Assembly: GCA_022009935.1 (NCBI GenBank)
Contig: CP091731.1
Coordinates: forward strand, 1,222,212-1,286,211
Direction: 5' to 3'
Length of the DNA: 64,000 bases
Source of the DNA: Candidatus Melainabacteria bacterium
GTDB lineage: Bacteria; Cyanobacteriota; Vampirovibrionia; Gastranaerophilales; Gastranaerophilaceae
In this document: in pieces, positions 19,688-64,000 of the stretch
Layout of the letters: the number at the start of each line of letters is the position of its first letter
How positions within the stretch are numbered: the stretch's first letter is position 1
Made by a program: the position numbers and the translations under genes
The notes under the pieces: generated by a model
Told to the model about the DNA's origin: nothing
Databases searched by the model: none
The model's input: only the letters and a program-made list of their open reading frames with translations

Positions 19688-19733
19688 CCCCCTGCGTGCA
19701 AGGCAGGTGCTCTACCAGCTGAGCTAATCCCCC
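19661..19733 (-). tRNA. tRNA-Ala (anticodon UGC)
   Basis: GGGGGATTAGCTCAGCTGGTAGAGCACCTGCCTTGCACGCAGGGGGTCAGGAGTTCGAATCTCCTATCCTCCA. Cloverleaf with a G3:U70 pair. CCA is not encoded. Confidence 0.9.
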
Positions 19734-19755
19734 AAGGAATTCACTTACATGTTTA

Positions 19756-19784
19756 ATTATAACATCAGCAAAAAAATTATGCAA
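19756..19784 (-). promoter_or_regulatory. promoter for tRNA-Ala (TTGCAT-17-TATAAT on the minus strand)
   Basis: The -35 element is at 19779-19784 and the -10 at 19756-19761, about 22 nt upstream of the tRNA 5' end. Confidence 0.55.
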
Positions 19785-19811
19785 CACTTTTTTTGGTTTA
19801 TATTAAATCGC

Positions 19812-20395
19812 TTTTTATATAAACCTAGCACAAAAAAAAACAAAGAAGTCCAATGGCTGACACTGCTTTATCTATAGACTTATGTCACAAGTTGCTTGAT
19901 TTTTTCTTTTTTTATATAAACCTAGCACAAAAAAAAACAAAGAAGTCCAAACTTGACTCTTCCTTGTTTTTTCGACTTTCTTAGCTAAATCTTTGCTTTT
20001 CTTCTTTTATATAAACCTAGCACAAAAAAGCAAAGAAGTCCAATGGCTGACACTGCCTTATCTATAAACTTATCCCACAAGTTGCTTAGATTTTTCTTTT
20101 TTTATATAAACCTAGCACAAAAAAAAACAAAGAAGTCCAAACTTGACTCTTCCTTGCTTTTTTCGACTTTCTTAGCTAAATCTTTGCTTTTTCTTCTTTT
20201 ATATAAACCTAGCACAAAAAAAACAAAGAAGTCCAAACTTGACTCTTCCTTGCTTTTACGACTTTCTTAGCTAAATCTTTGCTTTTCTTCTTTTATATAA
20301 ACCTAGCACAAAAAAAAACAAAGAAGTCCAATGGCTGACACTGCTTTATCTATAGACTTATGTCACAAGTTGCTTAGATTTTTTCTTTTTTATAC
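19812..20395. repeat. tandem array C: six 94-97-nt units with a common head and two alternative tails (order a-b-a-b-b-a)
   Basis: TATATAAACC unit starts at 19816, 19913, 20008, 20103, 20200 and 20294. The common head is TATATAAACCTAGCACAAAAAAAAACAAAGAAGTCCAA. The tails copy gene 3' ends (see findings). Confidence 0.9.
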
Positions 20396-20921
20396 CTTAG
20401 TCTTGTTGAAAGGTTGGTTATTGCACAAACAAAAAATCCCATAACACCAATACTAAACATAAATGGAATTAATGTTATTAACGATTTTTGCTTGATAAGT
20501 TTCTTATATTCATTTTTATATCTGTATTATTTTTGTCTGCAAGATTTTTTAGCTAATTTATTAAGTTCTGTAAATTTTACGACTTCTAAATCATTTTTAA
20601 GTGTTTCTTTGCATTTGCCGTTTTTTTTCAATATACGCTTAAATCCATTTTCAAAAAGTTCACTTCCCGATATAACATACAATCCGACAATCGGGTAACG
20701 AAAAGTGTTTCTATAAAATTTTCTTTCCCACGGTCATAAGCAGCACCAAAATATCCTAATCCCCTATTAATACACAAGATGTCAACTGTCCTTTGCTCAA
20801 ATTCAACTTTCCGTTTTCACTTGTATAATCAATACAAAAATATTTATTTATAAAATTTTTATATTTTTATTATTTTTGAAATTTTATCACCAGGTGAAAG
20901 TATAAATTCAGAAATATTCAT
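20374..20921 (-). CDS. hypothetical protein with C-terminal membrane helix, several frame changes
   Basis: ATG at 20921 overlaps the upstream stop (TAATG). Fragments are MNISEFILSPGDKISKII..., GLGYFGAAYDRGKENFIETLF..., ...LIPFMFSIGVMGFFVCAITNLSTRLRYKKEKI*. The stop at 20374-20376 lies inside the last array unit. Confidence 0.35.
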
Positions 20922-21536
20922 TATTGTCTTTGACTTACTTCCTTTTTAGCAAGCAAAATAGCACTCAAAATACTTAAAATCGATGCAATAAAAGCACGAA
21001 TTAAGTTTTTATATGCACTATTTTTTACTTTGTTAATTTTATTTTTATCTTCTTCTTTTTTGTCAAGTGATGCAATATTTACAAAATCACTTTGCTTGAA
21101 TGCTTTAATTGTAAGCAAATTCTTTGAAATAATTTAACGTAAAAACAAGAATTGGTATAATGAGTGATGTAAGTGCAATAGCTGCTTTTATTGGTATGAT
21201 TTTATTTTTAGTCGAAATCTTTTTTAATTTTTCATAACTTTGAGCTACTAATTTTTTTTGTTCAGAGGTTAACTTTTTTGAAAAAAGTTTGCGAAATATT
21301 TTCTCTCCCAATATTTGTGGTAAAAAATAAACAACGGCACTCTCTGCTGTTTCCAAAAATGTATTTTCAAATAAATCAGCCTTGCTTCTTGAAAATGCTG
21401 CTTTGGGAATAAGTTGTGTAGTTGTGTCCTGAATAAATCTTGATGTTGATAAGCCCGATGCACTTTCGTTGTGTGCAATAAATTTCCCAGCAAGTTTTAA
21501 TGGTAATGGTAATGTATTCAATAAATTATTTGTCAT
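20921..21536 (-). CDS. hypothetical membrane protein (one frame change)
   Basis: MTNNLLNTLPLPLKLAGKFIAHNESASGL... starts at the second ATG (21536) after AAGGAAAAAA. The C-terminal part ...FIASILSILSAILLAKKEVSQRQ* is in the adjacent frame. Confidence 0.45.
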
Positions 21537-21811
21537 ATTTTTTCCTTTTTTGTTAAAACTAAAAAACCTGTACATAAAGTGCAGGTTTAATTTATATTAA
21601 AATATAACAAATGTTACTACAGCCTGCACAATAATTATGCCAAGCTACGCCAACTTTTATTGATTTTATACATTACATTACTCATACTTTTATTATAATA
21701 GCAAATAAATATTATTCAATACCTATTTTATATTTATTAAGTTTTTTAAAAGCATAATTAATAAATCTGTCGAATTTAGAAATTCGACTAAAAACTAAGA
21801 CCTATTCTAAT

Positions 21812-22380
21812 ACATGCTTGTCTTCACTTCATCGTTCCAAATTATTGACAACTTTTTAAATAACGGACTTTGTGCGTCCAACAATTTGACTTTATCCACC
21901 AATGTGAATTGACTTTTGTTTGATTATAGCGTTGAAGTTCAATTAATACTTTTGTTAAACATTTTTTGTTTTTTCCGCCTGGGGCAGCGGATTCTACCCT
22001 AAAGGGCACCCTCCCTTGTACGGCTCGATTGCCATCTCGCCTACAAGAGGAGCTGTTGGTAGGGCGGAGTCGAGCGTTAGCGAGCGAGCCCGTAACAAAA
22101 CTAAAACAATGATTAGACTAAGAATTTAAAAAACGGGCTGCAATATAAAAAAAATCCGCTGGAGTGGAGCCTTGAAAAGGCGAAACGGAATGCAAGGATT
22201 GCGCTAAGCCAAATAATTTGGTATAACTAATTTTGAACAAATAACAACCCGACGTAATCCAAGAATCTGCCCTCATTTTATTCGGGCATCTGTCCTACGG
22301 CGGATTTTTTTATATACATGATGGGGACGGCTTCGCCGTCCCCACACTGCAACCCTCTTTGACATTCATAACTGAAAGTG
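21812..22380. repeat. non-coding mosaic of repeat modules (L, family-A core, GC-rich hairpins, K, M, H1)
   Basis: Modules are shared with 26126-27060 and 60224-60388: L 21812-21852, A-core 21897-21968, long GC hairpin 21975-22068, K 22153-22202, M (reverse) 22248-22303, H1 22323-22343. Confidence 0.8.
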
Positions 22381-22386
22381 TGGAAT

Positions 22387-22430
22387 AAAAAAAAGCAAAA
22401 GAAGTCCAAACTTGACTCTTCCTTGCTTTT
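22387..22430 (-). terminator. intrinsic terminator of pnp
   Basis: On the minus strand: AAGCAAGGAAGAGTC...GACTTCTTTTGCTT stem followed by an A/T-run (T8 in RNA sense), 10 nt after the pnp stop. Confidence 0.6.
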
Positions 22431-22439
22431 TCAATTTTC

Positions 22440-24572
22440 TTAGTTAAATCTTTGCTTTTCTTCTTCTGAAACACCTTTGATTGTCAAATTGACACGACCT
22501 TTGTCATCGATTTTAATAACTTTGACAATAACTTCATCGCCAATAGACAATTTGCTTTCAACGGTTTCAATACGTTCATTTGCAACTTGAGAAATATGCA
22601 CCATACCGTCTTTTCCGGGGGCAAGCTCAACAAAAGCTCCGATTGGTATAATTCTTACAACTTTTCCACGGCGAACCATACCCTCAACCGGTTTAAAAGT
22701 CGCATCTTCAATCATACGCATTGCTATATTAGCACCCTCGGCATCATTGCTTGTAATTGTAACATGTCCGTCATCTTGTATATCAATTTCAGCACCGCTA
22801 CATTCAATAATATTTTTAATATTTTTGCCTCCCGGACCAATAACAACACCAATATCATCAACATCAATGTTCATTGAATAAATGCGAGGTGCAAACGGTG
22901 ACATCTCTTTAGCAGGTTCAGTTATTACTTCACGCATTTTGCCAAGAATGTGCAAACGACCTTCTTTAGCCTGGTTTAAAGCTTGACGCAAAGTTTCATT
23001 GCTTATGCCTTTCACCTTCATATCCATCTGTAAAGCAGTAATGGCTTCGTCATTACCTGTAACCTTAAAGTCCATATCGCCCAAAAAGTCTTCAATACCT
23101 TGAATATCAGTCAGTACAACAGTTGCATCATCTTCTTTGATTAATCCCATAGCAACTCCGCCAATCATACATTTAACAGGAACACCCGCATTCATTAAAG
23201 CCATTGAGCTGCCACAAGTTGAAGCCATAGAAGTTGAACCGTTTGATTCCAAAACATCAGATGTAACACGGATTGTGTAACCAAATTTGTCCATATCAGG
23301 CAAAGCAGGAACATTTGCACGTTCAGCCAAGTTTCCATGACCTATTTCACGACGTCCCGGGCTTCTCAATGCCTTTACTTCACCTACTGAAAACCCAGGG
23401 AAAATGTACTTGTGCATATACGTCTTTTTAGTCAATGGGTCAACACCATCCAATTCAAGTGCCATTGAAGGTCCTGCAAGTGTTGCAACAGAAAGAACTT
23501 GAGTTTGCCCACGAGTGAATACGGCTGAACCATGAGCACGAGGAATTACCCCAACTTCACACCAAATCGGTCTGACTTCTGTTATTTTACGTCCGTCTGC
23601 ACGAACTCCCTCATCGATAATCATTCGACGCATTATTTTCTTTTCCAAATATTTAAACTCTTCAGCTATAAAATCAATGCCCGATTCATTTATCATTTTA
23701 TTTATTTCATCTTCTTCGCCTAAGGCTGCAACTTTTTCCTTAACAAGCGTTTTAGCTTCTTCAAGCTTATTTTGACGGTACTCACGGTCAAAATTATGAT
23801 AAGCATCATAAATCATATCATAAGCTGTTTCTTTTATTATTGAAGCCAAACGACTTGTGTCATAAGGATTTACAAATTCAGGTTTTTCAACCCCACACAT
23901 TTTAGCAAATTCAATTTGTGCTTGAACTTGTTTTTTATCTCAACTTGAGCAAACTCAACTGCGTGCATAATGTCATCTTCGGTCACAAAATTGCAACCGG
24001 CTTCAACCATAATAACACTGTTTTCAGTACCTGCAACAACTATATCCAAATCAGATTCTTTTGATTGTTGGTGAGTCGGGTTTGCAATATATTCACCATT
24101 AATACAAGCTACACGAACGGCACCGATAGGGACCTTCAAACGGAGCTTCTGTCAACATCAATGCAAATGAAGCACCCAACATTGCAAGAGTATCTGCTTG
24201 GTTTTCTTGGTCATAACTCATAAGTTGAGCCACGATTTGAACATCATTTCTATATCCTTTAGGAAATAAAGGACGAATTGGTCTGTCTATCAATCTTGAT
24301 ATTAATATAGCTTTTTCACTCGGACGTCCTTCATTTTTGGTAAATCCACCGGGAATTCGTCCAATAGCTGACATACGTTCTTCATAATCAATAAGCAACG
24401 GGAAAAAATCAATACCTACACGTGGTTCTTTTGCAACTGTTGCATGCACAAATAACATTGTATCACCACAACGTATTGTTACAGAAGAGCTTGCACTTCT
24501 TGCATATTTCCCTGTTTCTACTTCAACAACTTTTCCACCTATGGTAAGTTGTATTTTTTTACTTTCAACCAT
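22440..24572 (-). CDS. pnp: polyribonucleotide nucleotidyltransferase (PNPase), two frame changes
   Basis: Three ORF-track fragments (24099-24572, 23870-24139, 22440-23900) give a colinear PNPase: two RNase PH domains, KH, and S1 (GKVVRIIPIGAFVELAPGKDGMVHISQVA). One break is at the T6 run 23931-23936. Confidence 0.9.
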
Positions 24573-24721
24573 TTTTTCTTCTTTCTTTCTTTTTTATTTT
24601 CTACCCTTTTGTATTCATCTAAAATTATACAACAAATTGTTTTTAATGTAAAAAAAGGACGTATTTAATAAAAACACGTCCATTATTTAATTATATGTAA
24701 AATTAGTTTGTTGCTTATTAA

Positions 24722-25016
24722 TTAAGCTGAAGCAAGATTTTCAGATTCTGCTTTATGTTTTTGATAACAATCTTTACAAAATACTTCTTTACCTTCAACA
24801 GGCTTAAAAGGTACTTTTGTCGTAATGCCACAATCACTACATTGAACTTCATACATTTTTTTGTGACGACTTTTGCTGCGGCGACGTTGTTTACGACATT
24901 CACTGCAACGTTTTGGGGTGTTAACTAATCCTTTTTGAGCATAAAATTTTTTCACCGGCTGTAAATACAAATTCACAACCGCAATCTTCACAGATTAGTT
25001 TTTCATCTTCGTACAT
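24722..25016 (-). CDS. zinc-ribbon protein (CxxC...CxxC, zf-trcl-like), one frame change
   Basis: MYEDEKLICEDCGCEFVFTAGE(Q)KFYAQKGLVNTPKRCSECRKQRR...VQCSDCGITTKVPFKPVEGKEVFCKDCYQK. AAGGAG SD upstream of the ATG at 25016. Confidence 0.6.
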
Positions 25017-25240
25017 CGGGTGTTTCTCCTTTTATTTTGTAACTTTAAGCAGATTTATAACAGTCATTTTAGTTTAATTTATTTAAAATGCAATAGTTAA
25101 TTTTTCTACTTTTTTACATTCTAACTTTTTTTTTATTTTTTGGCAAGAATATATATTTATGTTTCATAAAACAATTATACTATTTTAATTATCAATGAAT
25201 TATGGTATAAATAAAATAAATAATTAAAAGGCATTTTAGT

Positions 25241-26002
25241 ATGATAAAGAAAAAAATATTAAGTATTATTTTATTAGTTATATTATGTTTTACGCTAAAT
25301 CCGATTGCTGTTTTGGCAAATGAATATGATAATGATGGGGATTCTAACGGTTATGACCCTGTTGAGTTTAAATTTGAACATATAAACAATGGAAAAACGT
25401 CATCGCCAATGGATTTAATAAAAGTAACAGATGACGGCACACGAGTTATTGTTAAGAATAACCTTATCCCTATTGCCTTTAACGACCATTTTACGACTAA
25501 GAAATACAAGGATTTAAATGTAGTCGAGTTTTACATCCCTTGTGATATAACAACGAATAATGCAAAATGCTTAATTCCTGCCAAATCACTTGTTTTAGGT
25601 GAAATAAGCTGTATACAACAACCCAAATGGGGTAATCGTAATGCAAAAGTTTATATTACTTTAAAAAAGCTTATCTTCCCAAATGGGCGCCAGTTTGATA
25701 TATGCGCTAAACCATATGAAAATGGTGGTGTTTTGAAAAAAAGTGGTTGGACAAATTTTGGAAAAGCGGCAGCATATACAGTTGGCGGTTTTGGATTAGG
25801 AGCCGGTAACGGTGCTTGGATTGGGGCTTGTGCAGGCAACGCTTGGACAGGCACTTGGTTGGGCATGGCTATTGGCGGTGGCGCCGGGCTTTTGCTTGGA
25901 CTTTTTACACCGGGAATGCATTATAAGGCAAAAAAAGGTAAAGTCATTTATATGCGACTCTGTGAAGATATTATTATATCTCCTGATTGTTGTTGCGACT
26001 AA
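25241..26002 (+). CDS. secreted hypothetical protein with C-terminal glycine-zipper segment
   Basis: Intact 253 aa. Signal-like N-terminus KKKILSIILLVILCFTLNPIAVLA. C-terminal GGFGLGAGNGAWIGACAGNAWTGTWLGMAIGGGAGLLLGL. Confidence 0.6.
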   Translation: MIKKKILSIILLVILCFTLNPIAVLANEYDNDGDSNGYDPVEFKFEHINNGKTSSPMDLIKVTDDGTRVIVKNNLIPIAFNDHFTTKKYKDLNVVEFYIPCDITTNNAKCLIPAKSLVLGEISCIQQPKWGNRNAKVYITLKKLIFPNGRQFDICAKPYENGGVLKKSGWTNFGKAAAYTVGGFGLGAGNGAWIGACAGNAWTGTWLGMAIGGGAGLLLGLFTPGMHYKAKKGKVIYMRLCEDIIISPDCCCD

Positions 26003-26040
26003 ACAAAGAATTTGAAGTGAAATAAAATAAATTGATTTCA

Positions 26041-26125
26041 TTCACCATTGTGGATTGATTTTTGTTTACTTTTTGCGTTGAAGTCCAATTATTTTATTTT
26101 CCTCCAAATACTTTGTTTTAGTTTT
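26041..26125. repeat. single family-A repeat unit (degenerate)
   Basis: CACCATTGTGGATTGATTTTTG...GCGTTGAAGTCCAATTATTTTATTTTCCTCCAAATACTTTGTTTTAG, followed by TTTTATATGACGGGCT. Confidence 0.75.
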
Positions 26126-26514
26126 ATATGACGGGCTGCGGATTCGTCGTTGGCCGTCTTGGATTTCTTTCTAGCTCACAGAGCCGTGCCTTATGTGCCT
26201 TGCACAAGCCGGCACGGTCTGTTCGCTCCCCGGACTACGCCCGTTCAGAAATCCGCTTGCCTGATTGTGAGGAGAAAAGCGTTGCATCCGTGCGGAGCTT
26301 TAGACGAGGAAGCGACCCAGCTTCCGAGTATAAAGCGAAGTAGTTAATGACCGCCGTAGGAAAGACGACCGAATGAAATGAGGGCGGATGCCCCAGGCGG
26401 TAAAAAGCGTAAGCCGTGCGTAAAACAAAGCCAAAACGGCTCAGTTTTGGATTTGTTTGTAGCAGTTAATAGGCGACGGCGGATTCGCAGTTGGCCTTGC
26501 CTGATTGTGAGGAA
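26126..26514. other. GC-rich non-coding segment with long imperfect hairpins and module M copy A
   Basis: Much higher GC than the flanks. Extended hairpin 26167-26212 (AGAGCCGTGCC...GGCACGGTCT). M at 26351-26400. TTGCCTGATTGTGAGGA is repeated at about 26258 and 26497. The ORFs here have no SD and implausible composition. Confidence 0.6.
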
Positions 26515-26812
26515 CTGAACGGAGTGAAATAATTTTGTAAAAAAATTATGAAACGGAGTTGCATAGTTCCGAACGCTGCGTAATCCAAGATAAAAGAGTT
26601 TTCTTCGAAAACTCCACAGGAGCGAAAACTGAACGGAGTGGAACAATTTTGTAAAAATTGTGAAACGGAGTTGCATAGTTCGAACGCTGCGTAATCCAAG
26701 ATAAAAGAGTTTTCTTCGAAAACTCCACAGGAGCGAAAACTGAACGGAGTGGAACAATTTTGTAAAAATTGTGAAACGGAGTTGCATAGTTCCGAACGCT
26801 GCGTAATCCAAG
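26515..26812. repeat. 2.7 tandem units of 114/111 nt, each with two perfect 7-8 bp hairpins
   Basis: CTGAACGG unit starts at 26515, 26629 and 26740. Hairpins are ACAATTTT-GTA-AAAATTGT and GAGTTTTC-TTC-GAAAACTC. Unit 1 has the compensated variant ATAATTTT...AAAATTAT. Confidence 0.85.
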
Positions 26813-27060
26813 ACATGCTGTCTTCACTTCATCGTTCCAAATTATTGACAACTTGCAATCCTGCATTCCGTTTCGCCTTTTCAAGGCTACACTCCAGCGG
26901 ATTGCTGCGAACTTACGTGCTGGGTGTGCTGACGCACACACGGCGCACTAGTCAAAATTTGGCTAACCACGGCGGATATTATTTAATGCAGGGGGACGGC
27001 AAAGCCGTCCCCCTGCACCCCTTGGATATTCACAACTAAAAATGTGGAAAACAGAGCCAA
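26813..27060. other. GC-rich mosaic segment (modules L, K inverted, H1)
   Basis: L at 26813-26854 (same as 21812-21852). K at 26855-26905 (reverse complement of 22153-22202). H1 hairpin at 26988-27016, preceded by CCACGGCGG plus an AT spacer. Confidence 0.7.
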
Positions 27061-27096
27061 ACAAATGAGTGAACATTTCACGGGTTGCAAGGGGTT

Positions 27097-27371
27097 TTAT
27101 ATAACGGGCTAACGCGTGACAACTGATGCAGTCATTCACCAACGTGGATTGACTTTTACTTAATTATAGCGTTGAAGTCCAATAATGCTTTTTGTTAAGC
27201 ATTTTTGTTTTAGTTTTATATGACGGGCTAACGCGTGACAACTGATGCAGTCATTCACCAACGTGGGTTGGCTTTTGCTTAATTATAGCGTTGAAGTCCA
27301 ATTATTTTATTTTCCTCCAAATACTTTGTTTTAGTTTTATATAACGTGCCGTGGAATAACTAATTTTCACA
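27097..27371. repeat. family-A tandem units (2.3 copies) abutting the ispG stop
   Basis: TATATAAC / TATATGAC starts at 27097, 27217 and 27338 (120-121 nt period). The core is CACCAACGTGGATTGACTTTT...GCGTTGAAGTCCAAT. Confidence 0.85.
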
Positions 27372-28429
27372 CTACTTCAAACCAACAAGATAATTAGTAA
27401 GTATTGCTTCAAACTCGTTTAATAAATCTTCTTCTTTTACTTTTTTAATTATCTCGCCTTTTTTAAAAATATAACCTTCACCAATACCGCCTGCAATTCC
27501 AAAATCAGCATGTCTGGCTTCTCCCGAGCCATTGACGGCACATCCCATAACCGCAATTGTCAAAGGAGTTTTTATATTTTTAAATCTTTCCTCCACTTTG
27601 TGAGCAAGGTCAATCAAGTTTATTTTACACCTGCCACAAGTAGGGCAAGAGATAAAATTTATACCTTCATCACGAAGTTTTAAAGCTCGTAGTATATTAA
27701 ACCCTGCATAGACTTCTTCAATAGGGTTTTCACTTAGCGAAACACGTATTGTATCACCTATACCGTCAAGCAAAAGCGGTGAAAATGCAAGAGATGATTT
27801 TATTAGACCGTTTTTAAAGTACCTGCTTCTGTCAAGCCCAAGTGTAGCGGGTAATCTACTTTTTTGTCAATAAGCCTGTATGCTTCAATTGTTGTTTTAA
27901 CATCAGAAGATTTTAAAGACACTTTTATTTGGTCAAAATCGTTATCTTCTAATATCTTTATGTGTTCCATTGCCGACTCAACCATTTTTTCTGCAAGCGT
28001 TAAATCGTCACGGTTTGCATATTTTTTATCCAATGACCCCCCATTTATCCCGATACGGATTGGAATGTTGTGTTTTTTTGCACATTCGACAACTTTTTTA
28101 ACATTCTCTTCTTTTCCAATATTCCCAGGGTTCAATCTCAAAGCATCAACACCCATATCAATAGCGGTTAAAGCAAGCCTATAGTCAAAATGAATATCCG
28201 CAACAATTGGTATTGGTGATTTTTTCTTTATATCTTTCAAAGCGCTTGCCGCATCTTTATTTAAAACAGCTAAACGTATTATTTCACAACCGGCTTCGCT
28301 TAATTTAAAAATTTGGTTTAAAGTAGCGTTAACATCACAAGTATTTGTCGTACACATTGATTGGACAGCTATTTTATTTCCGCCACCGATTTTTACATCA
28401 CCTATTTTTATTACCTTTTTCATAGCCAT
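27372..28429 (-). CDS. ispG: 4-hydroxy-3-methylbut-2-en-1-yl diphosphate synthase (IspG/GcpE), one frame change
   Basis: Fragments 27803-28429 and 27372-27773 are colinear: ...HLGLTEAGT / GIGDTIRVSLS...CPTCGRC...GCAVNGSGEA. The break is at the T5/A3 run 27811-27818. Confidence 0.9.
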
Positions 28430-29901: not shown

Positions 29902-32900
29902 ATGTTTGAAAATAATGAGGATAATGATAATTTAAATGAGTTTCTAAATGACGATAACTATAACTCGTCAGATACAGAAAAAATAATAAATGCCGTTTCT
30001 AAAGTTGAAGTCGGTATAATTTCTGCAGTTGCAGGTTTTTTTGAAAATATTTCCTTTATTGAAGAAACTCAAGCCATTGAAGATAATATAACTATAAACA
30101 CTTTAAACGTTATAAATGAAATTCAATCCTTGCGTGAAATTCTTATTAAACTGCCTTCAATAAAAAATATTAATTCAAATAGTGAAACTAATGACAACCA
30201 AAGTGAAGTTATTGAAAAATTAAATAATATTATTGAAACTTTAAAAGCTGTTTCAAACAGACCACAAGCACCTATTGAACCTAAAATAAATATTAATATT
30301 AATGAAGCATTAAAACCTTTAAATCAACAATTAGAGTCAATTAATTCTTATATAAATGAAATAAATTCACAAATCCAAACTTTAAAAGCACAAAATACAG
30401 AAAATATTTTAAATAAAGAAAATATAGAAGAAATTTGTAATGTTACCGAGGCAAATGGCAGTAATGGCAATATAATTGAGTCTTTAAATTTTCTTAATAA
30501 AAACCTTAGTCAAAAATTGCAAGAGGTGAAAAGCTTTGTCCAAAGCGAAAATAACAACAAACAAATTAGTGATTCTTTAAGCAATCTTAACCAAAACTTA
30601 CAAGAGGTGAAAAGCTTTGTCCAAAGCGAAAATAACAACAAACAAATTAGTGACTCTTTAAGCAACCTTAACCAGAACTTGCAAGAGGTGAAAAGCTTTG
30701 TCCAAAGCGAAAACAAAAACCAAGAAATTTGCGATTCTTTAAGCAACCTTAACCAAAACTTACAAGAGGTGAAAAGTTTTGTTCAAAGCGAAAACAAAAA
30801 CCAAGAAATTTGCGATTCTTTAAGCAACCTTAACCAAAACTTACAAGAGGTGAAAAGCTTTGTTCAAAGCGAAAACAAAAACCAAGAAATTTGCGACTCT
30901 TTAAGCAATCTCAACAATAATTTGCTTGAAATAAAGGATATAGTTGACACATACGAAAGTCAAACATGCGATAGGCTTAGCAATGATATACAAAATCTAA
31001 TAAAAGCTATTGAAATTAATGAAGATATTTATAACAATCAAACCCAAAATGATATTTTTGAAGCGTTAAATACTCTAAACAGTAAAATTAGTATAATTAC
31101 ACACACATATAATGAAACTGATGAAAATGACGTAAAAAACTTATTTGTAAGTATTGACGAAATTATAAATCATCTAAATTCACTTGATTTAAATATTAAT
31201 ACTATAGAGCAAAACCAAAATTCAATTGATGTAAAATATGAACTTGATAGTTTAAAAGAAGAACTTTCACAAATTATTGACGAAAAAACATCCCTTGTTG
31301 ATGAAAACCAAAGCTATAACGTTAATGAAATATTGACTGCTATAAACAATATAAAAGATAATATATCAAATTTAGATGATAAAATTAATGATGAAAGCAA
31401 AAATGAACAAGATGTCGCTTTTCGTGAAGAAATAAAAACAAATTTGACAAAATTATCACAACTTGTCGAGTATTCTTCCTCAACATCTTCAAGTACAATC
31501 CAAAACGAAATAAAAGAAGTCAAAGATACAATTATTGAATCCGTTGCCGGATTTTTTGCAAACTTTAATTTTGAAGAAGAACAAGAAACAATACAAAATT
31601 TTATTGTTGAAAATAAAAATGATATAAATGACAAACTAAACCAAACATTTATAAAACTTGATGAAAAATTAACACCAATTACATCAACAATACAAAACAT
31701 TGATATACTTAAAGAAAACGTAAGTCGCATTAACGAAATATTTTCAAAATCATCTAATGAATTGGATGACAACAATGACACATACAATTATACTTTTATC
31801 GACCTTGAAAATGATATTATAAAACTCAATATGATGTTGAATGATTTAACAACATCATTAAACCAAAATTTAGACGAAAACAAAACTACAATAAAAAATG
31901 AATTATCCAATGTAACAGAAATAGTAGAGTCATTCAAAAACGAAAATACGTCTTTCATTAAAGACGAAATATCAAACTTGTCCTCGGTTGTTGAGTCAAC
32001 AAATGATGACATTTCAAGCATTTCGAAACGAACAAATAAACTTATAATCTTAGCCGATGAAGCACAAAATGCTTATAATAATAATGTTGAAAAATTCAAA
32101 AATCTTACATCACAAATAATTGCTCAAATCAACAATCTTACAAAATTAGGACAGGATTTTTCAAATATAATAAACAAACAAAACCTAACATTAAACAATA
32201 TTAACAATCTAAACGAAGCTTTTATATACCTTGGAACTTGGATTGATGAAGTTGATGTAGTATTTAAAAATATACAAGAAAACGTTAAAACAACGGTTAA
32301 AAACGAAGATTTAAACCTTGTTCGTGTATCGGTTGAAGATAGGCTTAATAGCATTGAAAATGTTGTTTCAAATATTGAAAACTCCATAAATGATATGACG
32401 TTAAAACTTAATTCTTATGAAGAAATAAATGTTAATGTCGAAGATAAAATAGGCAGCTTTGATGAAATATTTGAAAATATTGAAAACAATATTAACGATA
32501 ATAACTTTAAAATAAATAATTTAAGCGAACAAATCGCTGATGTTGAAAATTCGTTTAATAATAATCTTATCTCAAAACTTGATAGGGTTAATGAAGTTAT
32601 TGAAGAACTTCAAAATTCATACGAAGAAACAAACAACAGCATCAATGAAAAAATTGAAACCATTGAGAATAATCTTAATAATAATGGTGATTATAGCGAT
32701 AAATTCAATGAAATTCTTGAAAAATTAAAAGAAAATGAAGAAAAGAATAACGAAATATCAAGAAAATTAGAAGAAAAAGAACAACTTTTTGAACAAATGA
32801 AAAACGATATGGACAATGTTCACAAGCTTAATGCCAAAGTTAACGGAATTGAAGATGTAATTTTACGCCTTGATAAAAAAATAACACGGATTGTTAATTA

Positions 32901-46992: not shown

Positions 46993-48468
46993 ATGAATAG
47001 AACATTAACACCTTTAAAATCAAATACAACACCTAAAATTTATGCAAAAATGAATGCAGTTACACAACCTTATTTACCGTGGAATTTAAGCTATGCAATG
47101 CCACAAGATTCTTTTACCAGAACAAATCAAACTCCAACTCAAAAACTAGAAGAGGAATATTATCAAAATTCGGAGATAATTAATGAAACTTCCTCCTTCA
47201 AGTTTAGTAAAAAGTTTAGATGAACTTGAAACAGCTAGAATATTAAAACTTAGTAACACTAAAATAACATCTTTGCCTAATTTAAAAAATGTTAGAGAAT
47301 TATGGGCACCAAGAACATTGAAATATTTAAATAATCTTCAAACGGCTAAAATTATAAATATTTATAACACCAAAATTACATCCTTGCCTAGTCTAACTGA
47401 AGTTAAAAGAGAGTTTTTTGGCCAAGAACTTTAAAACAAATGGATAAGCTTGAAACTGCCGGTTTTTTTACATATTAATCAAACTCAAATTGAATCTTTA
47501 CCTAGCTTGAGGGAAGTTAACGGGCTGTGGGCACCATGGACATTAGGTGAGGATATTTTAAAAGTAGGTTGTCCTAAGTTGACTAACGTTAAGTCAATAT
47601 TAATTTTAAATAAGTCTAGTTTAGCATGTAAAGATTTTCCAAGTTTAATTCAAATTGGTGATGATGATAAATTATTTCAATTTCAAGGAAATCAATATAT
47701 AAAAACAATGGGTAATTTATTGAAAATAATAAATAAAAATCGCCAAGAAAAAGATTTGCTCCCATTAGAAGCTCAGCATATAAAAAAGAGATCAATATAT
47801 AATTATTTATCCTGAAGAAAATCCAAAATATAATAAAAGAACAGATATGTTATCAGAAAGACCAAATATTTCAAATATACAAAAATCGAACTATTATCCT
47901 CAAATGAATTCAAGATTAAACGATTATAGTTTTGATAAACAAAACCCAACATATAATGAAAAGAACAGATATGTTATCAGAAAGACCAAATATTTCAAAT
48001 ATACAAAAATCGAACTATTATCCTCAAATGAATTCAAGATTAAACGATTATAGTTTTGATAAACAAAACCCAACATATAATGAAAGAACAGATATGTTAT
48101 CAGAAAGACCAAATATTTCAAATATACAAAAATCAAACTATTATCCTCAAATGAATTCAATATTAAACGATTATAGTTTTGATAAACAAAACCCAACATA
48201 TAATAAAAGAACAGATATGTTGTCAAACAGACCAAATCTTTTAAATATGCAAGAACTAGATTATAATTTAGAAATAAATCCAAGATTAAACGATTATAGT
48301 TTTGATACAATAAACCCAACATATAATAAAAGAACAGATATGTTGTCAGAAAGACCAAATCTTTTAAATATGCAAGAACTAGATTATAATTTAGAAATAA
48401 ATAATCCTTTTAGTAGAACGTTTGAATATAACAATCAAAATAAAAAAAATATTAATTATTTTGGATAA
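46993..48468 (+). CDS. repeat protein: LRR-like TKI(T/E)SLP(S/N)L segments plus five 41-aa tandem repeats; several frame changes
   Basis: Track fragments 46993-47223, 47183-47434, 47450-47815 and 47932-48468 abut each other. The motif T(K/Q)I(T/E)SLPSL.EV..LWAP.TL recurs three times. Confidence 0.35.
47820..48440 (+). repeat. 5 x 123-nt coding tandem repeat
   Basis: AGAACAGATATGTT recurs every 123 nt. The unit encodes NPTYN(K/E)RTDMLSERPNISNIQKSNYYPQMNSRLNDYSFDKQ. Confidence 0.9.
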
Positions 48469-57619: not shown

Positions 57620-58565
57620 TTAAATAGCATTTGCACCACTTACAACTTCGTTTATTTCTTGAGTAATGGCACCTTGACGTGCTTTGTTATAGTCAACACT
57701 TAGTTTATATATCATGTCCTCTGCATTTTTGCAAGCTGATGACATAGCTGTCATACGAGAAGCCAATTCAGATGCTGTTGCTTCAAGCAAAGCATGGTAT
57801 ATCATATTTGTAATAAACATCGGAACAACTTTTTGCAAAATAACGTGTTCATTTGGCTCAAATGTCATCAAAGCATCTATTTGTGTTGCTTTGTTTGGTT
57901 TTTGTTCATCGGATTCATTGTTTTCTTTCATTTCGTCTAAGTTCATTGGCAAGATAGTCCAGTCAACAACTTTATATGACATCATATTTTGAAAACGTGT
58001 TGTTATGATTTCAATGTTGTCTATTTTGTTATCAACAAAACAACTTGTCATATCTTCAGCTATAACAATTGCCTGACCTGATGTAGGATTTTGCGGAATG
58101 TTTAGATATTTTTTTTCAATTTCACAATTTAAGCTTTCACACTTGCGACGCAACCCTTGATAACCTTTTTGTCCAACGATAAACAATTTGACTTTAATAT
58201 TTTGTTTATTATATTCTTCAATACGCTTCAAAGTAAAGCGAATAACATTTGCATTATAAGCTCCGGCTAATCCTTTTGAAGAAGTGACAATAAGCATTCC
58301 TGCAGTTTTAAGCTCTCTTGGTTTCAACAACTCAGCATAATTATCCAAAGCTCGTTTCACCTTTAACCCACTCATTGAATATTTGCTTACAGAGCGTAAA
58401 GCCTGCTAAAAACAAACGCAACTTCTTTGGCAAAAGGTCTTGCGGCTTTCACTCGGTTTTCAGCTTTTTTACTTTTGCAGCTGCCACCATTTTCATTGCT
58501 TTTGTTATTTTTTGTGTGTTTTGAATACTTGTTATTCTGTCTTTTATATCTTTTAAATTTGACAT
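57620..58565 (-). CDS. atpG: ATP synthase F1 gamma subunit (one frame change)
   Basis: [36 protein letters not shown]... joined to track ORF 57620-58375 (...[20 protein letters not shown]). Confidence 0.9.
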
Positions 58566-58608: not shown

Positions 58609-60109
58609 TTAAATGAACTTATGTTTTTTCTTTAATGTTTCAATATCTTCGTCATTCATTTTTTCACCGGAATTTAGTTTATCATTAAGTTGAGGCATAT
58701 TGGATTCAAAATAATCAAACCAACATTTTTTAAACTCAGGGATTTTAGTATTTTTTATATCATCTAAAAACCCATTGTTAGCGGCAAAAAGGATAGATAT
58801 TTGTTTTGCGACACTCAATGGTGAATACTGTGGTTGTTTCAAAACTTCAGTTAATTTTTCACCTCGAAGAAGTTGGTCTCGAGTAGCTTTATCCAAATCA
58901 CTTGCAAACTGTGCAAACGCTTCAAGTTCGTGGTATTGTGCCAAATCTAAACGAAGTTGTCCTGCAACTTGTTTAATACCTTTTGTTTGTGCAGCACCAC
59001 CTACACGAGAAACAGAAATCCCTGCATTTATTGCAGGACGTACACCTGAATTAAATAAATTGCTTTCCAGGAATATTTGTCCGTCAGTTATAGAAATAAC
59101 ATTAGTGGGGATATAAGCAGAGACGTCGCCGGCTTGAGTTTCAATAATAGGCAAAGCAGTTATACTTCCACCACCTAATTCATCATTCAGCTTACAAGCA
59201 CGCTCAAGCAATCTTGAATGTAAATAAAAGACATCACCAGGGTAAGCTTCACGTCCCGGTGGGCGTTTCAACAACAAGCTCATTGCACGATATGCTTGAG
59301 CGTGCTTTGTCAAATCATCATATATTATTAAAACTGATTTTCCCTCTTCCATAAACTCTTCGCCAATTGCAACACCCGCAAATGGTGCTATATATTGCAT
59401 TGGAGCCGGTGAGTTCGCAGAAGCGTTCACTATTATTGTATAATCCATAGCATCGTGTTCATTCAACGTTTTGGCTAGTTGAGCAACTGTTGAGTTCTTT
59501 TGACCGATTGCAACATAAATACATATTACATCACGACCTTTTGGTTGATGATTGTGTCAATAGCGATAGCTGTTTTGCCTGTTTGTCTATCTCCAATAAT
59601 CAACTCACGTTGTCCTTTTCCAATTGGTGTTAATGCATCAATTGCAGTCAAGCCTGTTTGAAGTGGCTCTATGTACTGATTTTCTTGTTACAATCCCCGG
59701 TGCAACACGTTCAATGGCTCGAGTTTTTGTATATTCGATATTGCCTTTACCGTCAAGTGCAACCCCTGTTGGGTCAATTATCCTTCCTATCAGGCCTGTA
59801 CCAACCGGTACTGATGCAATTCGTCCTGTCGTTTTTACTTTAGTGCCTTCTTTTATTTCTTTATAATCACCCAAGATTACAACACCAACATTATCTTCTT
59901 CTAGGTTTAACACAAGACCCAAAGTTTTATTTTCATCTTCAAACTCGACAAGTTCACTTTTGCATGGCATCTTTCAAACCATATATTCTTGCTATGCCAT
60001 CGCCTGATTCAAGCACCTGACCTTGTGTGTTTATTTCAACTCGACTTTCATAATTCTCTATTTTTGAACGTATTATATTTGTGATTTCGCTTGGATTTAT
60101 TGTTACCAT
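58609..60109 (-). CDS. atpA: ATP synthase F1 alpha subunit (frame changes)
   Basis: [23 protein letters not shown]..., ...[15 protein letters not shown]..., [13 protein letters not shown] (Walker A region in a shifted frame), ...[19 protein letters not shown]... Confidence 0.9.
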
Positions 60110-60780
60110 TTTTTATATAATCCTTCCTTGTTATATTACATCAAGTCCAATCTTGACACTTCTTCAATCTCTAATTATACTACTAAACCATTGATTTTCT
60201 GTTTTATATAACCCTTCCTTGTTTAATTTTGCTATTGTTTGTTTACTTTTTTGGGGGTTGCAGGGAGGCTTTGCCTCCCCTGCTGTTATAAAATCCGCCG
60301 TAGGAAAGACGCCCGATTGAAATGAGGGCGGATCCCTCAGGCGGAAAAAAGAGTTTGGAATGTTTGTATCTATTTAATTTTTATTTGGTTTATATAACCC
60401 TTCCTTGTTATATTACATCAAGTCCAATCTTGATACTTCTTCAATCTCTAATTATACTACTAAACCATTGATTTTCTGTTTTATATAACCCTTCCTTGTT
60501 ATATTACATCAAGTCCAATCTTGACACTTCTTCAATCTCTAATTATACTACTAAATCATTGATTTTCTGTTTTATATAACCCTTCCTTGTTATATTACAT
60601 CAAGTCCAATCTTGACACTTCTTCAATCTCTAATTATACTACTAAACCATTGATTTTTTTGTTTTATATAACCCTTCCTTGTTATATTATATCAAGTCCA
60701 ATCTTGACACTTCTTCAATCTCTAATTATACTACTAAACCATTGATTTTCTGTTTTATATAACCCTTCCTTGTTATATTA
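60110..60780. repeat. tandem array B: 91-92-nt units (five full, two partial) filling the atpH-atpA intergenic region
   Basis: TATATAAC starts at 60114, 60205, 60391, 60482, 60573, 60665 and 60756. Each full unit carries TTGACA-17-TATACT on the + strand (first copy 60153-60181). Confidence 0.9.
60224..60388 (+). other. 165-nt GC-rich segment (H1 hairpin + module M) replacing most of array-B unit 2
   Basis: H1 GCAGGGAGGC-TTT-GCCTCCCCTGC at 60260-60283. Spacer TGTTATAAAAT. M CCGCCGTAGGAAAGACGCCCGATTGAAATGAGGGCGGATCCCTCAGGCGG at 60295-60344. Confidence 0.7.
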
Positions 60781-61323
60781 CATCAAATTATTCTTTAATC
60801 GTTCATATCTGCTTTTTATACTACCATCAATTATTTTATCATTAGTTTTTATAATTAAACCACCAATGATTGATTTATCAACGGTATAATTTAATAGTAT
60901 TGTCTTTTTAAATTTGTTTTCCAATTTATACTTTAAACGTTCTTTTGTTTCATCGTTTAAAACTATAGCTGATGTTACGCTAACTTTAAGTTTATTTTTA
61001 ATCTCATCATCGAACTCGCAATACCAATGTGCTATATCTTCAAATATATCCATCCGACGTGCTTGAATTAACATTCTTAGAAAATTTAGTGTTTTTTCTG
61101 ATATTTTAGATGCAAAAATTTCACTAATAATTTCTTCAACTTTTTCTTCATTAAATGTTGGATTTATAAGCACATTCTTTAAATCTGAAGATGATTTTAT
61201 TGTTTCATTTATTAAGCTCAAATCATTACGTATAACATCAATATCATTTCCTGCACTTTCAATTAATGCACGTGAATATCGTTTTGCTATTGTTTCATTT
61301 TTATAACTCATGTTTTTCATCAT
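60778..61323 (-). CDS. atpH: ATP synthase F1 delta subunit (OSCP)
   Basis: Intact 181 aa. IAKRYSRALIESA... and C-terminal DKSIIGGLIIKTNDKIIDGSIKSRYERLKNNL. Confidence 0.85.
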   Translation of the reverse strand: MMKNMSYKNETIAKRYSRALIESAGNDIDVIRNDLSLINETIKSSSDLKNVLINPTFNEEKVEEIISEIFASKISEKTLNFLRMLIQARRMDIFEDIAHWYCEFDDEIKNKLKVSVTSAIVLNDETKERLKYKLENKFKKTILLNYTVDKSIIGGLIIKTNDKIIDGSIKSRYERLKNNLM

Positions 61324-61824
61324 AATGATAACCCGTCTATACTATTTATGCATTCATCAATATATTTTTGATGTAATTGTGGATTTTGACTTAGAGTTTG
61401 TTTTATATTTTCATAACTTAATGCTATTGATGCTTTTGATATTGAACTTGTTACATCGTTATATGTATTTTGTACTTCACGGTCAATATCCTTTATTAAC
61501 GTTTTTTCCAAATGGTCTTTTATTTCTTCTAATTCATCTTGAGCTTTTTCTTCAATGTTCTCCAAAGTTTTTTGAGCATTTTTAACTATCATATCTGTTT
61601 CGATATGTACATTCTCCAAACTTTTTTTGCTTTTTTCATATTTTGTTAAAGCAACTTTAACATCATCGTTAGATTTGTTAATTTTTTCAACTATTTTTTT
61701 ATGATTATTATCAATAATACTTTTTTACATCAAGTCTTCTTATAATTAAAGCAATAAAGCCTATCATAATTAGGAAGTTTATTACGTTTGAATGTATTAT
61801 ATTTGTATATGAAAAATCAAACAT
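61320..61824 (-). CDS. atpF: ATP synthase F0 b subunit (one frame change)
   Basis: MFDFSYTNIIHSNVINFLIMIGFIALIIRRL (TM helix), then a charged helix (track ORF 61320-61619). The start overlaps the upstream stop (ATGTTTGA). Confidence 0.75.
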
Positions 61825-62290
61825 TTCTCATTACCTCATCAACTTTATTTTCATCAAATGATATATTGTCAATATTTTCTCCAAGGATTTTTGTTGCAAT
61901 ATAATTGGATAATGATTTAACATCCTCTCGCACATTTTTATATATATCATTTTTTTGGTTTTCTAAGTCATTTTTTGCATTAGTTAATTTATTAGCTATT
62001 TCATTTTTTTTATTTTTTATTTCAACATCTTTTTGGTTTTTCAATTTATCTTTGCCATTTAAAATAATATCATTAGCGTTTTGATTTGCCTTTTGTATGT
62101 TAATATTATGTTGATTAATGCATTCTTTTTCGTTTTGGTTGTGGGTATTAACTTTTGTTTTATTATCATCAAGGAGCATATTACGTTTTTCAATAATATC
62201 ATTAATTGGCTTGTATAATATTTTATTCATAAGCAAAGTAAATATTATAAAGCTAATTGTTGCTATTAAAAAAGTTCCGTTAAATTCCAT
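61817..62290 (-). CDS. atpF2: ATP synthase F0 b-prime-type subunit (second b paralogue)
   Basis: Intact 157 aa. MEFNGTFLIATISFIIFTLLMNKILYKPINDIIEKR followed by a long charged helix. Confidence 0.75.
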   Translation of the reverse strand: MEFNGTFLIATISFIIFTLLMNKILYKPINDIIEKRNMLLDDNKTKVNTHNQNEKECINQHNINIQKANQNANDIILNGKDKLKNQKDVEIKNKKNEIANKLTNAKNDLENQKNDIYKNVREDVKSLSNYIATKILGENIDNISFDENKVDEVMRNV

Positions 62291-62323
62291 TTTATACCCT
62301 TTAACCTTTCATTCTATTTATGT

Positions 62324-62350
62324 GAAAGCAGTTAAAATTAAACTGCTTTC
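62324..62350 (-). promoter_or_regulatory. 10-bp stem-loop between atpE and the b-prime gene (mRNA stabiliser/attenuator candidate)
   Basis: GAAAGCAGTT-N7-AACTGCTTTC, a perfect stem in the 81-nt spacer after the c-subunit gene. Confidence 0.45.
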
Positions 62351-62371
62351 AAGCATAAAAGAACTTTACTA

Positions 62372-62623
62372 TTATCCTATCATACCGCAAAGTTTCATAG
62401 CAATAAATAAGCCATAAATAGCACAAGCTTCAGATAAAGCAGCACCAAGAAGGAAGAACCCCACAGCCTTACCGGCTATTTCAGGTTGACGAGCTATTGC
62501 TTCAAGCAGACCCTTTGTTGCCACACCAATACCAACACCTGCACCTATTGCACCAAAACCGATTGCAATACCTGCACCTAAGTTGCTTAATCCCTGTACT
62601 TCGTTTAACATTTCTGTTACCAT
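62372..62623 (-). CDS. atpE: ATP synthase F0 c subunit
   Basis: Intact 83 aa. GAGIAIGFGAIGAGVGIGVATKGLLEAIARQPEIAGK...LSEACAIYGLFIA. AAGGAG SD. Confidence 0.95.
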   Translation of the reverse strand: MVTEMLNEVQGLSNLGAGIAIGFGAIGAGVGIGVATKGLLEAIARQPEIAGKAVGFFLLGAALSEACAIYGLFIAMKLCGMIG

Positions 62624-62633
62624 ATTTTTCTCC

Positions 62634-64000
62634 TTTTTTATATAACGGGCTATCGCCCTACATCCTTCTTATTCTACCACCAACGTGGAATGACTTTTGT
62701 TTAATTTTTGCATTGAAGTCCAATTATTTCATTTTCCTTCAAATACTTTGTTTTAGGTTTTATATAACGGGCTATCGCCCTACATCCTTCTTATTCTACC
62801 ACCAACGTGGAATGACTTTTGTTTTGATTTTGCATTGAAGTCCAATTATTTCATTTTCCTTCAAATACTTTGTTTTAGGTTTTATATAACGGGCTATCGC
62901 CCTACATCCTTCTTATTCTACCACCAACGTGGAATGACTTTTGTTTTGATTTTGCATTGAAGTCCAATTGGTACTTCCTAATATCGTTTATCATAATAAA
63001 CTTAAATTTGTGCAACCCATACGCAGTCGTGAACAATTATCACTTAACGAAACATCGTCAAAGCCAAGTTTGTTTGAACATTGGGCTTTGCCCAATGTGA
63101 GTTACGCAGGCTCGAGTTGAGTTTAGTGAAAATGTGAACGACAAGTCGGGGACTGAGTTTTTGTGCAACTTTGCCACCAAAAGTTGCCCCGTCCGGAGGA
63201 CATTATATTTAATTTAGTTTTATTAACCTTTAATTTTTTATTTTCCATTTTTTCCTTTTTTATATAACGGGCTATCGCCCTACATCCTTCTTATTCTACC
63301 ACCAACGTGGAATGACTTTTGTTTAATTTTTGCATTGAAGTTCAATTATTTCATTTTCCTTCAAATACTTTGTTTTGGGTTTTTATATAACGGGCTATCG
63401 CCCTACATCCCTTCTTATTCTACCACCAATGTGGAATGACTTTTGTTTAATTTTTGCATTGAAGTTCAATTATTTCATTTTCCTTCAAATACTTTGTTTT
63501 GGGTTTTATATAACGGGCTATCGCCCTACATCCTTCTTATTCTACCACCAACGTGGAATGACTTTTGTTTTGATTTTGCATTGAAGTCCAATTGGTACTT
63601 CCTAATATCGTTTATCATAATAAACTTAAATTTGTGCAACCCATACGCAGTCGTGAACAATTATCACTTAACGAAACATCGTCAAAGCCAAGTTTGTTTG
63701 AACATTGGGCTTTGCCCAATGTGAGTTACGCAGGCTCGAGTTGAGTTTAGTGAAAATGTGAACGACAAGTCGGGTGCCGGTTTTGTGCAACTTTTGCCAC
63801 CAAAGTTGCCCCGTCCGGAGGACATTATATTTAATTTAGTTTTATTAACCTTTAATTTTTTATTTTCCATTTTTTCCTTTTTTATATAACGGGCTATCGC
63901 CCTACATCCTTCTTATTCTACCACCAATGTGGAATGACTTTTGTTTAATTTTTGCATTGAAGTTCAATTATTTCATTTTCCTTCAAATACTTTGTTTTAG
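62634..64000. repeat. higher-order tandem repeat upstream of atpE: 622-bp blocks of three family-A units plus a 289-nt X segment; continues past the window end
   Basis: TATATAAC starts at 62639, 62761 and 62883, then 63261, 63384 and 63507, then 63883. X segments at 62970-63260 and 63595-63882. Block period is exactly 622 nt. Confidence 0.9.

Follow-up and report, generated by a model that had tools for sequence, protein, structure and literature searches.

The genes for the delta and alpha subunits of the F1 ATP synthase, atpH and atpA, are separated in the genome analyzed here by an array of tandem repeats, and the question that this locus raises is how such an array came to lie inside the atp operon and whether it serves the adjoining genes or is only tolerated by them. 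The stretch of DNA that we examined, hereafter the window, is 64,000 nucleotides long and belongs to a human-gut Candidatus Gastranaerophilales species, as indicated by the annotation of the relatives of its AtpH; the Gastranaerophilales are a non-photosynthetic sister group of cyanobacteria. A first-pass annotation of the window had described the array as an amplified intercistronic junction and had suggested antisense transcription or a tandem array of small RNAs among its possible roles. A literature search on tandem repeats in Gastranaerophilales found nothing relevant.

Structure of the array between atpH and atpA

Tandem Repeats Finder detects 4.4 copies of a 91-nt period at 60389-60786 (97% matches), and the repeat search adds a further copy at 60104-60235, with spacings of 277, 91, 91, and 92 nt. 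The entire interval 60111-60786 can be parsed into five cores of 57-58 nt and one GC-rich cassette of 164 nt, denoted G1, separated by seven copies (six full, one partial) of a 34-nt sequence that we denote X (Table 1). Read on the gene strand as TTGATGTAA-TATAACAAGGAAGGGTTATATAAAA, X comprises the last two atpH codons with the stop, the Shine-Dalgarno sequence AAGGAAGG, and the A/U-rich leader of atpA. The array thus reads X core X core X core X core X G1 X core X, with core-plus-X units of 91-92 nt, and the atpH stop itself lies within the last repeat copy, TTGATGTAA at 60778-60786 being the start of X. In the X copy at the native junction, ATATAAC and GTTATAT form a hairpin with the Shine-Dalgarno sequence in its loop.

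Most of the first-pass description of the units holds. The gene-strand order TTGATGTAA, TATAACAAGGAAGGGTTATATAAAA, CAGAAAATCAATGG is as stated, the last unit does run into the atpH stop at 60778, and the second unit is indeed truncated, its match spanning 21 nt (60203-60223) before 164-165 nt with a GC-rich core. Two details require correction: TATATAAC opens the units at 60205, 60391, 60482, 60573, 60665, and 60756, but 60114 reads TATATAAT, with one mismatch; and the middle part of each unit does copy the atpA leader, except that the true leader is one base off (AAGGAAGGATTATATAAAAA).

Table 1 Features of the atpH-atpA array and copies of the G2 element. Positions are those of the window unless a contig is named.
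Feature	Position	Strand	Remarks
atpH (F1 delta subunit, 181 aa)	60778..61323	-	ORF list; Pfam OSCP on the identical protein in other assemblies
X copy 1	60753..60786	-	Native junction, TTGATGTAA-TATAACAAGGAAGGGTTATATAAAA on the gene strand
Core 1	60696..60752	-	57 nt; conserved hairpin block GTCAAGATTGGAC at its end
X copy 2	60662..60695	-	Stop-codon copy mutated (TTGATATAA)
Core 2	60604..60661	-	58 nt; CAAAAAAATC variant
X copy 3	60570..60603	-
Core 3	60513..60569	-
X copy 4	60479..60512	-
Core 4	60422..60478	-	-35-like hexamer mutated (TTGATA on the + strand)
X copy 5	60388..60421	-
G1 cassette	60224..60387		GC-rich; two strong hairpins, GCAGGGAGGC-TTT-GCCTCCCCTGC and CCGCC...GGCGG
Partial X	60202..60223	-	AAGGAAGGGTTATATAAAA part; closes the G1 cassette
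Core 5	60145..60201	-	atpA-proximal
Terminal X	60111..60144	-	Working atpA leader; Shine-Dalgarno AAGGAAGG 13 nt upstream of ATG
atpA (F1 alpha subunit)	58609..60109	-	ATG at 60107-60109; four ORFs here via one-base indels, intact 506 aa elsewhere
Antisense sigma-70-like motif, first of five	60153..60181	+	Sequence match only
G2	63004-63201	+
G2	63628-63823	+
G2	L003 8295-8479
G2	L031 4106-4283
G2	L031 1219-1397
G2	L011 9606-9788
G2	L048 about 2268-2450

The repeat search found no inverted repeats of 15 nt or longer in 59900-61000, and there are no terminator-like sites on either strand of 60110-60780. The predicted fold of the unit is weak on both strands (z = -1.4 on the + strand; z = -2.1, at -13.7 kcal/mol per unit, on the gene strand). 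The arrays and GC-rich cassettes have no match in Rfam, which was searched at the gathering threshold over the whole window and with an E-value threshold (E up to 5) over 59900-64000 and 19500-27500. We also considered and rejected a coding role of the units: stop codons interrupt every reading frame of each unit, whichever strand is read, and the 91-nt length is not divisible by three.

The window is rich in one-base indels. A comparison with one conspecific assembly (L010) over 2.49 kb of atpA-atpG gives 5 substitutions and 6 one-base indels, all but one of the latter in homopolymers. Because substitutions are few and the indels mostly homopolymeric, the window appears to be a long-read-type consensus that spans the array, so its cassette count is more trustworthy than those of short-read contigs, with the proviso that small length differences between units may be errors. 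Five genes are each broken into several ORFs in the window, namely, atpA (58609-60109), atpG (57620-58375), atpF (61320-61619), pnp (22440-24572), and ispG (27372-28429), in each case by one-base indels, mostly in homopolymers, and all five are unbroken in other conspecific assemblies; the breaks are consensus errors, not pseudogenes. Short reads cannot resolve the array, as is clear from the scaffold gaps that fall within it in four assemblies (L002, L009, L031, L033); short-read contigs end there or contain runs of N. That the array itself is an assembly artefact is nevertheless extremely improbable, given that the units recur in all ten independent assemblies of the species and in three further species, and that the internal units of the window are distinguishable from one another by point changes.

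Variation among strains and related species

The ten conspecific assemblies, all from human gut metagenomes and all encoding an identical AtpH, contain the same cassettes in differing number and order. Against 668 nt in the window, the atpH-atpA spacers in other assemblies measure 117, 306, 477, 488, 518, and 586 nt. The shortest layout, X core X, is found in four assemblies (L001, L004, L005, L007); two (L003, L006) have X core X G1 X, L008 has X core X G1 X core X G1 X, L010 has X core X core X G1 X core X, and the remaining two (L002, L009) have scaffold gaps in the array. Thus, G1 is present, absent, or doubled depending on the strain, in the last case within a duplicated core-X-G1-X superunit (L008), and the number of cores, window included, ranges from one to five per assembly; the short-read counts are lower bounds, so part of this apparent variation possibly stems from assembly. 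The shifting positions of G1 and the superunit of L008 are the outcome that unequal exchange between X copies would give. The variation in copy number that the first-pass annotation had proposed to look for at this junction in related genomes is seen among the conspecific assemblies.

Beyond the species, core-plus-X units are found upstream of atpA in three related species and are missing from two more distant relatives. In the first of the latter, L011, a GTDB representative with an AtpH 76% identical to that of the window and the sole relevant species representative returned by an AtpH scan of genome contigs, atpH and atpA are joined by a plain 39-nt junction; in the second, the P0063 species (AtpA 92% identical), the junction holds a G2 element, described below, and no core-plus-X unit. 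A sister species (AtpH 85%) carries at the same site a homologous array of 89-nt units, which is likewise variable and interrupted by scaffold gaps; its unit is 80% identical to that of the window, within the range of third-codon identity (70-87%). In the P0056 species (AtpA 96% identical), core plus X precedes atpA. Given that every unit of the window repeats the end of atpH with its stop and the leader of atpA, and that the junction is plain in L011, varies among conspecific strains, and is homologously expanded in the sister species, the description of the region as an amplified intercistronic junction stands.

The third species, with AtpH 85% and AtpA 98% identical, has the operon split: atpH and atpA reside at different loci, with unrelated genes following atpH (L037-L042), whereas atpA-atpG are preceded by a remnant of an rve_3 transposase and one and a half units (L043-L047, 2564-3000). 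The breakpoint of the operon therefore lies inside the array. The copy of the atpH stop (TTGATGTAA) is retained with atpA in this species, while the real end of atpH has drifted to TTGGTGTAA. In this lineage, the junction that carries the array elsewhere has become the breakpoint that parts the F0 and delta genes from the alpha and gamma genes, which lends indirect support, as far as sequence comparison goes, to the view that the array could be a weak point of the operon.

Across four species, including that with the split operon, the block GTCAARATTGGACTTGATGTAA and the AAGGAAGG leader show little or no change, and the center of the core is the least conserved part of the unit. This distribution suggests that the approximately 55 nt adjoining atpA (hairpin GTCAARATTGGACTTGAT plus X) are probably a functional, constrained atpA leader and that the copies upstream are probably passengers, and we conclude that the array consists of this leader amplified together with a variable piece. 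The hairpin-plus-leader block would be a concrete candidate for the control of alpha-subunit expression in these uncultured relatives of cyanobacteria.

Taken together with the strain data, these observations lead us to favor, with some confidence, the interpretation of the region as an intercistronic variable-number tandem repeat (VNTR), that is, an amplified atpA leader whose cassettes are delimited by copies of the native atpH-atpA junction. The general hallmarks of intergenic VNTRs are all seen: the head-to-tail (X-core)n-X pattern, a partial flanking copy, polymorphism in number, and a higher-order duplication (L008). In an ancestor of the clade, X came to be duplicated around a 57-nt core. 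The core aligns with a module 3' of pnp, and is related to a dispersed hairpin module that is placed 3' of genes in this genome, pnp being one example; G1, the second type of cassette, entered the same site later. Because X flanks each cassette, cassettes can be gained, lost, or reordered through unequal homologous recombination, or through replication slippage, from one X copy to another, and the differences between strains would have arisen in this way. The array is presumably transcribed within the atp mRNA, and would be tolerated there since no cassette has a terminator on the gene strand and the last X always restores the real ribosome-binding leader immediately before atpA.

Some considerations weigh against this account. 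Simple slippage does not explain the first event, that is, the insertion of the core with a 34-nt target duplication and, separately, of G1 with a 19-nt target duplication. In addition, the array has been kept through at least three speciation events, which could reflect selection rather than tolerance.

Promoter-like motifs and possible roles in expression

The + strand does carry the promoter-like motif reported by the first-pass annotation: TTGACA-17-TATACT begins at 60153, 60521, 60612, and 60704, and TTGATA-17-TATACT at 60430. Each full unit in the window thus matches the sigma-70 consensus at 10-11 of 12 positions; these are sequence matches, as distinct from mapped transcript starts. 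Only 10 other matches at the level of 11/12 occur in 128 kb (both strands counted), so that any given 91-nt unit has a chance of about 1.4% of containing one; the repetition of the motif from unit to unit is by descent and not independent. This low chance expectation, along with a 10/12 version at the same place in the species with the split operon, counts to some extent against a purely tolerated repeat. It is also a ground for regarding each unit as an antisense transcription unit, either in an array of promoters directed against atpH, atpF, and atpE or in a tandem array of small RNAs, and the host does use sigma-70-like promoters, for example, TTGCAT-17-TATAAT before tRNA-Ala.

We nevertheless consider an antisense role very unlikely. 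The full motif reaches 11/12 in the window, yet it is absent in the sister species and in the P0056 species despite the presence of the unit. Its -35-like hexamer, TTGACA, is the reverse complement of the invariant hairpin block, its -10-like hexamer falls in the variable center of the core, and the -35 is mutated in one copy in the window. Furthermore, the + strand has no terminator in or after the units and folds weakly (z = -1.4), Rfam offers no match, and the RNA would miss the real atpA ribosome-binding site, which is situated behind the first promoter. The motif is most likely a by-product, its -35 arising as the complement of a conserved hairpin.

The precedent for a tandem small RNA array is NsiR1 of heterocystous cyanobacteria, a 60-nt RNA encoded by 12 tandem repeats that each have a promoter of their own (PMC4030482). 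The array described here resembles that locus in its tandem direct repeats, in the size of the units, and in the promoter-like motif in each, but differs in lacking a terminator per unit and a stable conserved fold, in lying inside an operon and antisense to it, and in that the promoter-like motif is missing in two of the four unit-bearing species. Given that the units contain neither a terminator nor a stable fold nor a through-ORF, the suggestion of a tandem small RNA array is not supported.

A role on the sense strand is a further alternative. The array could be an expression module for atpA-atpG, in which the core supplies a promoter or an mRNA-stabilizing or processing hairpin (GTCAAGATTGGACTTGAT) and the copy number tunes the alpha and gamma subunits relative to the upstream F0 and delta genes. 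The species with the split operon must express atpA-atpG from the retained one and a half units, atpH being elsewhere; a -10-like hexamer occupies the equivalent position on the gene strand in the window (TATAAT), the split-operon species (TATTAT), and the sister species (TATAAA); and the hairpin and leader block is the part that remains invariant in four species. Moreover, a second array, located between atpB and atpE, keeps an extended -10-like motif, TGGTAGAAT or TGGTAGTAT, in two species. The F1F0 complex requires the alpha and c subunits in higher copy number, and both arrays lie directly upstream of such a subunit, alpha after delta in one case and c after a in the other, a placement that could again point to selection rather than tolerance. 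Against a sense-strand module, the best -35 matches at only 3 of 6 positions, the center of the core is the least conserved part of the unit, minimal states with one core were assembled in four samples, and the hairpins have little stability (-13.7 kcal/mol per unit, z = -2.1). We regard the module, taken jointly with the tuning by copy number, as unlikely, though by no means negligible.

Sister arrays, mobile cassettes, and known repeat families

The atpH-atpA array is not the only one of its design in this genome, and it is best read as a member of a lineage-specific family of modular intergenic repeats that includes sister arrays at 62637-64000 and 19814-20419. The first of these, between atpB and atpE, extends to the end of the window and consists of 122-123-nt units interrupted by two 290-nt cassettes with G2. 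Each unit combines the left 84 nt of a 123-nt MITE-like element with a copy of the 33 nt located after the atpB stop. The atpB-atpE spacer, which exceeds 1377 nt in the window, is 164 nt long in one set of assemblies and 719 nt long in another, and the sister species has an atpB-atpE array of the same design. The second sister array, downstream of pnp and upstream of tRNA-Ala, has 94-97-nt units of two alternating kinds. In both kinds, final codons of a gene are accompanied by a T-run hairpin and by GTGCTAGGTTTATATAAA. One kind is a copy of the 3' end of pnp, 2 kb away, with its last codons and terminator hairpin; the other duplicates the end of the gene immediately upstream, and it is the only kind present in L030, a contig from another sample. 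An exact-protein look-up with the ORF at 21105-21575 returned no match. A scan of metagenome contigs for the hairpin motif GAAGNGTCAAGNTTGGACTT gave 8 matches, of which only L030 is from this lineage, the rest being chance matches.

All modules of these arrays end in (G/C)NTYATATAAA, and different sequences are joined there. Complete copies of the 123-nt MITE-like element, whose inverted ends are about 32 nt long, are present at 25999-26121 of the window and at 11937-12059 of L015, and the sites of the element are filled or empty depending on the strain. In the window, it lies between ispG and a convergent 253-aa ORF, to which it supplies the last codons and the stop. The spacer downstream of ispG grows from 156 nt in L015 to 1370 nt in the window owing to insertions at module junctions of this type. 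GC-rich non-coding mosaics of recurring modules, without a match in Rfam, occupy 26122-27095 and 21980-22400, the former with a 111-nt tandem repeat at 26513-26813.

Of the two GC-rich cassettes, G1 resembles a REP element. It is nearly identical in the L011 species, where AtpH is only 76% identical, and related copies lie at 26351-26410 and 22265-22308 of the window and at 9471-9590 of L011. In some copies, another element is nested in the outer stem (L015 15706-15940). G2, about 190 nt long, is found in intergenic arrays of the atp genes in either orientation, varies in presence between strains and species, and occurs in three other species. Its predicted fold is a long irregular hairpin followed by a 3' hairpin, and in an alignment of five copies with 60 base pairs, we count 23 compensatory double changes, compared to 8.9 +/- 2.2 in shuffled alignments (none of 500 reaching this number) and to 2-4 in slid controls. 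It has no match in Rfam, phage records, or viral contigs. A coding reading of G2 was rejected by inspection; indels between copies break the reading frame. The covariation is strong, and we regard G2 as a promising candidate for a mobile structured element of a new type, and both G1 and G2 would count among uncharacterized mobile structured elements. A 34-nt piece of the 5' end of G2 (TGCAACCCATACGCAG..ACAATTATCAC) also appears upstream of atpB (L001 7490-7523), in a 540-nt phoU-atpB region that is present in all strains, beside fragments of other GC-rich modules.

These elements bring up the possibility that the arrays are built by insertion instead of by recombination within a VNTR. A dedicated mechanism, such as site-specific or single-strand transposition, might target TTATATAAA, duplicate 19-40 nt, and assemble arrays by tandem reinsertion. 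Four loci have different sequences joined exactly at the end of (G/C)NTYATATAAA (core, G1, and atpA; MITE half, G2, and atpE; A1, A2, and the tRNA-Ala promoter; MITE and other sequence after ispG). X is tied to the locus and not to the cassette, as expected of a target duplication; G1 and G2 are found in either orientation and recur, highly conserved, in several species; and a GGGC-GATA-GCCC hairpin is located 10 nt before the junction in the atpB-atpE unit. However, no recombinase or transposase is linked to the elements, duplications of 19-40 nt far exceed those of known bacterial transposons, and, the phase of a tandem repeat being arbitrary, information can come only from the mixed junctions. 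The pnp-derived A2 units can be accounted for equally well by ectopic homologous recombination between dispersed copies. A dedicated insertion mechanism is, in our estimate, improbable. Slightly less so, while still rather doubtful, is the broader proposal of an undescribed cassette insertion (of cores, MITE halves, G1, and G2) after TTATATAAA with a 19-40-nt junction duplication, in which G2 would represent a novel structured RNA or single-stranded DNA element capable of self-mobilization. If true, such a process would build strings resembling repeats and spacers inside essential operons of gut Gastranaerophilales. We dropped a reading of ATATAAC-N8-GTTATAT in X as a Xer/dif-like or integron attC-like site, since nothing but the GTTATATAAA half recurs at the other loci, with no inverted partner.

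Returning to the VNTR interpretation, the closest known analogues, by behavior and location, are the MIRU-VNTRs and modular repeats such as BOX. MIRUs, the mycobacterial interspersed repetitive units, are dispersed intergenic repeats of 40-100 bp, often located in operons and co-transcribed with them, with strain-specific tandem copy numbers; they are absent from the homologous site in relatives, and the ends of the unit overlap the flanking stop and start signals (PMC3184786; PMC12548453). Similarly, the 91-92-nt units vary in copy number by strain, are intercistronic and gene-oriented, are lacking in the L011 and P0063 species, and each duplicate the stop codon together with the ribosome-binding site. 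A hallmark of MIRUs, a small ORF translationally coupled to the downstream gene, is absent here because all three gene-strand frames are closed in every unit; moreover, the delimiter is the host junction, which two unrelated types of cassette share. The phyla differ, shared sequence is not expected, and the likeness is one of behavior and location. The BOX elements of Streptococcus pneumoniae and the REP and BIME elements are modular intergenic repeats with variable numbers of internal modules, hairpins, and possible effects on expression or mRNA stability (PMC3184786). The arrays share with them the modular intergenic organization, the variable tandem number of an internal module, and the predicted hairpins, but show no sequence relation, and BOX modules are not bounded by copies of a host gene junction; REP and BIME are GC-rich palindromes and as such are closer to the G1 cassette than to the 91-nt unit.

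The likeness to MITEs is confined to the atpB-atpE array, with its units built from the left part of an element with inverted ends. The 91-nt unit has no terminal inverted repeats, which are found in the related 123-nt element, and MITEs generate target duplications of 2-10 bp, compared to the flanking duplications of 34 nt (cores) and 19 nt (G1) here. With CRISPR arrays and integrons, the similarity is one of architecture only, in that a constant repeat of about 34 nt stands between successive inserts and differing inserts share a delimiter; the inserts are a few recurring ones (core, G1), not unique spacers, and the delimiter is a host junction that varies by locus. No cas or intI genes are present among the called genes near any locus examined. 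What sets these arrays apart is that the delimiter is the host's own gene junction, common to unrelated cassettes, in a design that recurs at several loci and in several species.

An essential, normally compact operon thus carries hundreds of bases of unstable repeats at two internal junctions, maintained across several species of the clade. The arrays explain the breaks of short-read assemblies in the atp operon and are practical strain markers for gut Gastranaerophilales. Further tandem repeats in the window are located at 47818-48375 (123 nt, 4.5 copies), at 6493-6581 (42 nt, 2.1 copies), and within two ORFs, namely, at 30502-30915 (81 nt, 5.1 copies) in an ORF of 1008 aa and at 16439-16843 (18 nt, 22.5 copies) in an ORF with DUF7666.
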